Part shown: positions 60,981 through 62,179 of the stretch, in pieces | How positions within the stretch are numbered: position 1 is the first letter of the stretch | Layout of the letters: every line of letters starts with the position of its first letter | NCBI RefSeq assembly: GCF_050320075.1 | Contig: NZ_CP190018.1 | Origin: Escherichia coli | GTDB lineage: Bacteria > Pseudomonadota > Gammaproteobacteria > Enterobacterales > Enterobacteriaceae | Direction: 5' to 3' (one strand) | Length of the DNA stretch: 64,000 nt | The notes under the pieces: generated by a model | Seen by the model: only the letters and a program-made list of their open reading frames with translations | Database searches by the model: none | What the model was told of the DNA's origin: nothing | Program-made: the position numbers and the translations under genes

Positions 60981-61034
60981 TTAATTCTTTAATTCTTTAA
61001 TTCTTTAATTCTTTAATTCTTTAATTCTTTAATT
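60981..61034. repeat. Octanucleotide tandem repeat, six perfect AATTCTTT units plus partial units
   Basis: Directly seen; overlaps the stop codon and last 5-6 codons (KELKN) of the minus-strand gene 61013..62179. Confidence 0.9.
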
Positions 61035-62179
61035 AATTCGCTATAACTTTTATAAATAATATCTAAAACCCTAATTAAATCATTTTTATACCTCAGGTTA
61101 TCAGGTTTTATAGAATATGCCTTTTTTAAGTATAGCTCAGAGGTTTTGTAGTCCTTAACTTTTTCAAAAATTAACCCTATATGATGGTATGCTGGAGCAT
61201 AATTTGGATCTTCGTTGATACAGCACTTATAATTATTGATGGCTTCATCAAATTTATTCACATGATTCAATGCTATTCCAAGTTCAAAATATGTATCGCG
61301 GTTTTTCGCTATTTTTACAGATCTTGTTAAAAACGGTAAGGCTGCTGCTGGTTTTTTTTGTCGAGTTAAAGCCATGCCATAATATAAATTATATAGTGGG
61401 TTTGTTATATTATTGTGTTTTACAGAATCAAGAACTTCAATGGCTTGGTCGTACTTTCTGTTTCTGATTAGTACATAGGCATTATAAATTTCATGTATGT
61501 TGTACTTTGAAAAATAATCTTTTCCTGAATATTCGCAATGAAATATCTTTGTTGCTTCGTTATCATTCTTTATCACAGTTTCAATAAATTTATCAATTTT
61601 AATAAAGTTCTCATGAATACTTTTTGTTACATTATGACCAGTGTTTTTTATTATTATGATGTGGATATTTTCTAATGTATATGGCAGTAACGATGCATTA
61701 TATAGATCGATTATGTCAAGCTCACCTGAAAATATATAAAACGTTGTGTCGGTGGCATTAGAAAACAAATTTGTTAAATCATGATATTTAACTTTAATGT
61801 CTTCGGGCATATGTAATTTACTTCGGCTAAAAGGGAGTTGTAAAACATATTCTGCCCCGAAACAAATTACATGTTTTGCTTTATTTTTAATTCCATATAA
61901 CGCTGCTCCCGTTCCTCCCATTGAACTACCAATATATATTGTATTTTTTTTCTTAGTAATGGATTTTATTGCGTCAACGCTATCTTCTAATGAAGAACCC
62001 ATACTTGGGATATTATGTTGATACCAATGATTTCTATCAATATTAATAAAGGTTTTCTTTCCCGGGAAGGAACTTAGTATTTTGTAAAGAGTGAATTTTC
62101 CTTTAGGTGTATTAAGTGCGGAAAAAATAACAAGGTGAGTATCAAATTCGTCATCTTTATGTAAAATGAAAGGGTTCAT
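61013..62179 (-). CDS. AT-rich gene: alpha/beta-hydrolase-like N-terminal domain (GxSxG nucleophile elbow, IGSSMGGTG) fused to C-terminal TPR repeats; function unknown (candidate esterase or O-acyltransferase)
   Basis: 388-aa ORF. GSSMGG motif plus downstream Asp/His candidates (GELD, TGHN). C-terminal Tyr/Ala-rich TPR-like repeats. Very AT-rich codon usage. Confidence 0.6.
   Translation of the reverse strand: MNPFILHKDDEFDTHLVIFSALNTPKGKFTLYKILSSFPGKKTFINIDRNHWYQHNIPSMGSSLEDSVDAIKSITKKKNTIYIGSSMGGTGAALYGIKNKAKHVICFGAEYVLQLPFSRSKLHMPEDIKVKYHDLTNLFSNATDTTFYIFSGELDIIDLYNASLLPYTLENIHIIIIKNTGHNVTKSIHENFIKIDKFIETVIKNDNEATKIFHCEYSGKDYFSKYNIHEIYNAYVLIRNRKYDQAIEVLDSVKHNNITNPLYNLYYGMALTRQKKPAAALPFLTRSVKIAKNRDTYFELGIALNHVNKFDEAINNYKCCINEDPNYAPAYHHIGLIFEKVKDYKTSELYLKKAYSIKPDNLRYKNDLIRVLDIIYKSYSELIKELKN

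Follow-up and report, generated by a model that had tools for sequence, protein, structure and literature searches.

In a 64,000-nucleotide stretch of an Escherichia coli chromosome (contig NZ_CP190018.1; hereafter, the window), a complete open reading frame (ORF) on the minus strand at 61013..62179 encodes a 388-residue protein (plus stop codon; identical to RefSeq WP_024946591.1) built as a fusion of an alpha/beta-hydrolase domain with a tetratricopeptide repeat (TPR) domain. Public annotation names it only 'tetratricopeptide repeat protein'. We consider it probable that this protein, the target from this point on, is a cytoplasmic capsule O-acyltransferase of the CsaC type, most probably an acetyl-CoA-dependent O-acetyltransferase, tethered by its TPR domain to the capsule polymerase or the Kps complex. 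The case is built on the fold, on homology to the meningococcal enzyme CsaC and to ORF5 of the E. coli K15 capsule locus, on conservation of the catalytic residues, on the position of the gene in its operon and on its pairing with a polymerase gene; from these we infer the acetyl donor and acceptor sugar, a chemistry of transfer and not of hydrolysis, and a contact between TPR and polymerase. A first-pass annotation made from the sequence had seen here a modifying enzyme acting on the polymer made by the large neighbouring protein. Fold, homology, residue conservation and operon position now support that reading for a capsule polymer, as a candidate function.

The N-terminal domain (residues 1-215, 61535..62179, minus strand, as are all features below unless stated) is the CsaC-like part and the candidate O-acetyltransferase; it has an alpha/beta-hydrolase core. 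Its IGSSMGGTG motif, which the first-pass annotation had singled out as a GxSxG nucleophile motif, spans residues 83-91. Within it lies the nucleophile elbow G84-S85-S86-M87-G88-G89 (61913..61930; Ser86 codon 61922-61924), which aligns with G112-SSKGG-117 of CsaC. The candidate Asp and His residues, claimed to follow in the expected order, do so: Asp155 and Asp158 in the segment D155-I-I-D158 (61706..61717), then His182 (61634..61636), which occupies the loop that follows the last core strand, where a triad His canonically lies. An AlphaFold2 model built from 13 homologs (pLDDT 85, pTM 0.83) shows a beta/alpha core in which Ser86 marks the turn from strand 80-85 into helix 87-98; the acids come after strand 146-152 and His182 after strand 172-177, and four TPR pairs and a cap follow. 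Structure prediction had been proposed as a check on the fold, and it returned the alpha/beta-hydrolase core with CsaC as the best structural match.

The C-terminal TPR domain (residues 216-388, 61013..61534) comprises four helix pairs (228-357) and a capping helix (362-387), found by profile matches as well as in the model, so the claimed fusion stands. Its repeats (Pfam clan CL0020, tandem 34-residue helix-turn-helix units) are unambiguous. The hydrolase part is marginal when a single sequence is used: Pfam Hydrolase_4 matches residues 57-116 with E=1.7e-3, and the sole NCBIfam match of the N-domain is XcbB_CpsF (E=0.003). A phmmer search of PDB with the target sequence alone returned TPR proteins only, the similarity to CsaC being undetectable at that level; PHROGs gave only weak matches to families of unknown function, and a viral fold library only generic alpha/beta hydrolases. 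Neither a signal peptide, in line with the earlier claim, nor a membrane segment is predicted in the target, which is accordingly predicted to be soluble and cytoplasmic.

Homology to CsaC (SacC/MynC), the capsule O-acetyltransferase of Neisseria meningitidis serogroup A (PDB 6YUO/6YUQ/6YUS/6YUV), is significant at the level of family profiles only. A 29-sequence profile of the N-domain, searched against all PDB sequences, ranked CsaC first (E=1.5e-7, CsaC residues 27-220 aligned), and hhalign of the target family against CsaC gave 94% probability and E=1.4e-7. A narrow 10-sequence profile had scored CsaC at only E ~0.1, significance being reached after broadening with relatives from the exhaustive search described below. 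The HMMER and hhalign alignments agree on the residue equivalences: F19-S20-A21 of the target with F37-S38-A39 of CsaC, W52 with Y79, S86 with S114, E110 with Q138, S118-R119-S120 with T147-R148-S149, D155 with D198, and D158 with H201.

By crystal structures and mutagenesis, the CsaC triad is Ser114/His228/Asp198, extended by Gln138, His201 and Tyr79, and transfer to polysaccharide, unlike transfer to water, needs Arg148 (PMC7501274). Arg119 of the target, in the lid insertion S118-R119-S120 (61820..61828), occupies the Arg148 column in both alignments. The hallmark network Gln138/His201/Tyr79 is not reproduced; its columns hold conserved Glu110 (61850..61852), Asp158 and Trp52. Target His182 and CsaC His228 fall outside the CsaC alignment (CsaC ~27-220), and the order, loop positions and conservation of the target's Ser, Asp and His residues fit a Ser-His-Asp triad. 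On these alignments the target family appears to keep the CsaC triad and the acceptor Arg while swapping the Gln/His pair for Glu/Asp. Both proteins have the alpha/beta-hydrolase fold, the GxSxGG elbow, the FSA motif of the oxyanion region, an aromatic residue at the Tyr79 position, the lid Arg and an acid after strand 7, and both are encoded in the serotype-specific region of an ATP-binding cassette (ABC)-transporter capsule locus. They share ~20% identity; CsaC has 247 residues and no TPR domain, and where it carries Gln138/His201 the target carries Glu110/Asp158. CsaC acts on poly-N-acetylmannosamine-1-phosphate, whereas the target's polymer is a different one that probably contains 3-deoxy-D-manno-oct-2-ulosonic acid (Kdo). 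Because the extended network differs and a TPR domain has been added, we do not regard the target as a CsaC ortholog.

A word-indexed protein search found only 13 close homologs of the target. When 1.84 billion cluster representatives were searched exhaustively with a profile, 2,525 relatives emerged at E<=1e-3, 837 of them at E<=1e-10, most with 370-410 residues and hence of the same build, and the TPR tail is detectably similar in at least 86 of 134 long representatives. Where the source gives a name at all, it is only 'tetratricopeptide repeat protein'. Conservation was counted over 154 diverse representatives from this search, with denominators that vary per column. The elbow is nearly invariant (Gly84 153/153, Ser86 151/153, Gly88 153/153), as are His182 (143/143) and Asp158 (148/149), with Asp155 at 108/149. 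In the Glu110 column, E (117), D (24) or Q (4) accounts for 145 of 152 relatives, and the aromatic columns are also strongly kept (Trp52 148/154, Tyr53 147/154, Phe19 141/148). Arg119 occurs in 109 of 148 members of the wider family and is invariant in the capsule subfamily. Since the nucleophile elbow with Ser86, His182 and Asp158 are 97-100% conserved though the relatives share only ~25-40% overall identity, selection on catalysis is indicated.

Literature searches on the accessions, on XcbB/CsxB/CpsF and on TPR plus O-acetyltransferase returned no description of the target protein or of a hydrolase-TPR family. A weak family-profile match (E=0.21) was to PDB 9hvz/9hwh/9hwi/9i87, 'XcbB/CpsF family capsular polysaccharide biosynthesis protein', one of them labelled with acetyl-CoA; no paper describing these entries was found in the literature searched.

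Four nucleotides separate the target ATG from the stop codon of the capsule polymerase gene, of which the window holds the 3' part (62184..64000; C-terminal 578 of 1,089 residues plus stop codon, the gene running past the window; full gene in strain 2D, L001 22185-25454). The polymerase combines a glycosyltransferase (GT) 4 module (153-283), a Capsule_synth/KpsC-S-like module (477-636), a TPR-like motif (824-852) and a GT29-like module (913-966). K15 ORF4 suggests by analogy that this last, sialyltransferase-like module could be an alpha-Kdo transferase. In every close-subfamily context examined (E. coli, two Aeromonas contigs, two Pseudomonas genomes and two further assemblies) the target gene lies directly beside an orthologous polymerase of ~1,090 residues, 43-57% identical over its full length, those of Aeromonas and Pseudomonas included; the comparison of homologous contexts suggested by the first-pass annotation thus upholds the link between the two genes. 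These loci also hold kpsMT/E/D, kpsC/S and Kdo-synthesis genes. A serotype-specific placement within an ABC-transporter capsule locus was found in E. coli (kpsFEDUCS-kpsMT-polymerase-target) and in five further loci from other taxa, the pair standing together in 6 of 6. Everywhere, the guanine-plus-cytosine (GC) content of the pair is well below that of the host locus (0.30 vs 0.50 in E. coli; 0.33 vs 0.49 in Aeromonas). Given this low GC, and KpsM/T of the E. coli target locus 71-77% identical to K15 KpsM/T, the gene pair behaves as a mobile, serotype-specific 'region 2' cassette.

In Aeromonas enteropelogenes (L004 8677-9857) a frameshift falls exactly at the domain boundary and leaves a 239-residue catalytic ORF and a 155-residue TPR ORF; the exact sequence of the catalytic ORF recurs on 13 contigs, and on a second Aeromonas contig (L005) the TPR part is degraded further. 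The split, with persistence of the catalytic ORF, is consistent with a TPR domain that is dispensable for catalysis. It also bears on a non-enzymatic adaptor, in which the TPR protein would scaffold or stabilise the polymerase or the export complex and the hydrolase domain would be a structural relic. Strict co-occurrence with the polymerase fits an obligatory subunit too, TPR domains do organise capsule machines, and the TPR part is all that public annotation recognises. A relic, however, would hardly explain why the elbow, His182 and Asp158 are so conserved at such low overall identity, or why the Aeromonas catalytic domain persists as a separate, intact ORF, and we regard the adaptor as highly improbable. 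In one Pseudomonas capsule locus a second hydrolase-TPR gene (L011 15812-17008; 398 residues, 194 bits to the family profile) accompanies the target ortholog and polymerase; this paralog suggests two separate modifications of one polymer.

The E. coli K15 locus offers the nearest comparison within the species. The K15 capsule is 4)-alpha-GlcNAc-(1->5)-alpha-Kdo-(2->, where GlcNAc is N-acetylglucosamine, and bears 3-O-acetyl groups in part. For ORF5 of its region 2, an alpha/beta hydrolase that contains GGSMGG, the authors proposed the role of O-acetyltransferase (PMC7387560). We found ORF5 (NDK77127.1 / WP_001395419.1) in strain 536 at the same chromosomal site, adjoining yghD, and it matches the target family profile with 60.6 bits and an hhalign probability of 98%. 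ORF5 and the target belong to one superfamily and have FLNDxxNxWY and GxSMGGY motifs in common. Their loci share the kps setting at yghD, a low-GC region 2, and GT4 and sialyltransferase-like GT activities nearby. Unlike the target, ORF5 has an N-terminal extension of ~90 residues, no C-terminal TPR domain and a CsaC-like Gln at the Glu110 position, and its function is itself a prediction. The K15 glycosyltransferases are separate small proteins, whereas the target locus has one fused polymerase. That this polymerase is a fusion of the K15 enzymes at the sequence level was considered and rejected, as BLAST against the K15 region-2 proteins gave no significant similarity. E. coli K13 region 2 likewise contains one large polymerase and one acetyltransferase (PMC12887879).

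After CsaC, the next PDB matches of the 29-sequence profile were Streptococcus pyogenes esterase A (EstA, PDB 4ROT; 3.3e-7), tributyrin esterase (2UZ0; 6.4e-6) and Gap2/Asp2 (2.9e-4). EstA is named in the CsaC paper as the nearest structural neighbour of CsaC (PMC7501274). The two esterases have E-values near that of CsaC and share with the target the elbow and a Glu after strand 6; they differ from it in being hydrolases that have no lid Arg at the Arg119 column and no TPR domain and that lie outside polysaccharide loci. Two findings tell against a CsaC-type O-acetyltransferase: EstA scores nearly as well as CsaC and has a Glu at the Glu110 column, and the replacement of CsaC Gln138/His201 by Glu110/Asp158 implies that the active-site chemistry differs. 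The former would suit a cytoplasmic esterase or thioesterase that deacylates the polymer, a precursor or a carrier, for instance by trimming O-acetylation or freeing an intermediate. Such an enzyme would need an ester substrate, yet no second acyltransferase is annotated in the E. coli locus to make one. The target, moreover, keeps as Arg119 the acceptor-type Arg of CsaC where EstA has Glu, and its relative K15 ORF5 sits in a locus with a known O-acetylated polymer and no other candidate gene. We therefore judge deacylation unlikely.

The Glu/Asp substitution would also suit an acyltransferase with another donor or acceptor, one transferring propionyl or another short acyl group, or acting on the poly-Kdo linker, the glycolipid primer or the chain terminus, possibly in control of initiation or termination. 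The TPR domain of the Cps3D polymerase is required for linker elongation (PMC11666461), and the three GT modules of the polymerase exceed what a disaccharide repeat needs. Set against this, no data indicate a specific alternative donor, standard KpsC/KpsS are present for the conserved anchor, and repeat-unit hydroxyls are what all the closest relatives, characterised or predicted, act on or have been assigned to. A different donor or acceptor is thus an outside possibility, and we retain capsule-polysaccharide O-acetylation as the preferred function. Asp2/Gap2 of the accessory Sec system (PDB 6OYC, 6LNW; NCBIfam TIGR03712) gives weak, repeated core matches (E=2.9e-4 and 3e-3), and 1e-7 for distant family members. 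Asp2 O-acetylates GlcNAc on serine-rich-repeat glycoproteins. It differs from the target in serving a Gram-positive protein-glycan system, in its domain context and in being much more distant.

For the TPR domain, the precedent is TviD, the Vi-antigen O-acetyltransferase of Salmonella Typhi. The TviD TPR domain has been shown experimentally to bind the GT4 polymerase TviE and the membrane and to be dispensable for catalysis (PMC8760489), and TPR domains also organise the capsule polymerase Cps3D (PMC11666461). TviD and the target both join an N-terminal acetyltransferase-type domain to a C-terminal TPR domain in an ABC-transporter capsule pathway, and both genes abut one for a polymerase with a GT4 module (TviE; the 1,089-residue neighbour, across the 4-nucleotide gap). 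TviD, however, relies for catalysis on an SGNH-like domain centred on Cys-His(-Asp), where the target has a CsaC-like alpha/beta hydrolase with Ser, and TviD is larger (831 residues, nine TPRs) and membrane-associated. No sequence relationship between TviD and the target was detected, nor any SGNH match of the target in the domain-library searches. Membership of the TviD type was rejected on the catalytic domain, an alpha/beta hydrolase with Ser in GxSxG, the likeness being one of architecture. Electrostatic binding of a polyanionic polymer by the TPR domain was likewise unsupported, the net charge of that domain ranging from +7 to -7 among orthologs. By sequence, then, the target looks like a CsaC-type catalytic scaffold placed in a TviD-type docking architecture.

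By homology with CsaC, the reaction would be of the ping-pong, double-displacement kind. Acetyl-CoA would first acetylate Ser86 in the GxSMGG elbow, giving an acetyl-enzyme, after which His182, backed by Asp158/Asp155 and Glu110, would activate a sugar hydroxyl of the nascent capsular polysaccharide, with Arg119 in the lid holding the polymer while the hydroxyl accepts the acetyl group. Through its four TPR repeats the enzyme would be anchored at the three-module polymerase or at the Kps export complex, such that the polymer would be acetylated during synthesis, ahead of export by KpsMT.

Outside the close subfamily, the more distant family members lie outside capsule loci in the contexts examined. 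One, in a Pseudomonas prophage (L006 9001-10248), sits between tail genes and a GH19 lysin; another, in a P22-like Comamonas prophage (L007 9001-12192), sits between the terminase-to-capsid block and a lysozyme gene. A further distant member is found among tandem TPR paralogs, and Synechococcus phage S-H9-2 (L015 3980-4582) has an N-domain-only homolog among auxiliary metabolic genes. A tblastn search of a prophage member against sequenced phages returned nothing beyond a TPR-only match and a single cyanophage N-domain-only homolog, present in two records of that phage. Judged from sequence and setting, the prophage copies may be lysogenic-conversion genes that modify surface glycans. Tentatively, the target might represent a large unnamed family (~2,500 clusters at 50% identity) that joins a CsaC-like hydrolase to a TPR domain, has the carboxylate pair Glu110/Asp158 in place of Gln138/His201, and has spread beyond capsules, prophages included. 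In CsaC, Gln138/His201 is the amide/imidazole pair proposed to bias an esterase scaffold towards transfer, and the natural Gln-to-Glu/His-to-Asp variant bears on the proposal that these extra residues make such a scaffold a transferase. If true, this would add a separate class of cytoplasmic glycan O-acyltransferases that solves catalysis in its own way and docks through a module of its own. O-acetylation alters the antigenicity and stability of capsules and their recognition by phage and complement, and certain capsule vaccines (serogroup A meningococcus, Vi) must contain it; naming a candidate modifying enzyme provides a direct handle on the K antigen of this locus and, more widely, a testable function for thousands of proteins annotated so far just as TPR proteins.

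No identification of the K-antigen type or structure for the E. coli locus was found in the literature searched. At >=99.6% identity, the target region is present in 22 of the 5,426 complete E. coli genomes searched, and the target gene alone is at least 99.8% identical in all 22; no diverged DNA-level copies of the gene were detected in the 5,426. The 22 genomes are from human, dog and chicken isolates, at least one of them from blood, and one strain is named as ST648 (NZ_CP008697). GC in the window drops from ~55% in the gsp type II secretion operon to ~30% from position 60,000 on. Strain 2D shows the order gspC-M(yghD), an insertion sequence (IS) remnant, the target, the 1,089-residue 'GT29 family' protein, kpsT, kpsM, kpsS, C, U, D, E, F, with the target through kpsF annotated on the same strand throughout. 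Because of this order and single strand, we take the target to be the final gene of an ABC-transporter (kps) capsule locus.

The order in strain 2D is non-canonical (L001 21014-35337), region 2 being at the yghD end and everything co-directional; the K15 locus of strain 536 (L010) differs in that kpsMT and region 2 are convergent towards kpsFEDU. In strain 2D, GC steps down along the locus from ~0.50 in kpsF-C to 0.45 in kpsS, 0.34 in kpsMT and 0.30 in the polymerase and target. The spacer between yghD and the capsule locus (60033-60908 in the window) is AT-rich, at about 31% GC, and retains 65 residues of an IS integrase core domain (60711-60908, minus strand), a remnant likely left behind when the low-GC cassette was placed or rearranged.

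Between this remnant and the target lies a terminator-like hairpin (60935..60972, minus strand; a 12-pair stem followed by eight T), ~40 nucleotides downstream of the target stop codon. That it ends the kpsMT-polymerase-target transcript is suggestive only, one terminator-like site having been found in the region against 2.1 expected by chance. An 8-bp tandem repeat, TTAATTCT on the plus strand and AAAGAATT on the coding strand, occupies 60981..61034 and overlaps the last codons and stop codon of the target. The window has six exact tandem copies of it, which Tandem Repeats Finder scores as 6.8; other strains have 5 or 8, with the protein unchanged.
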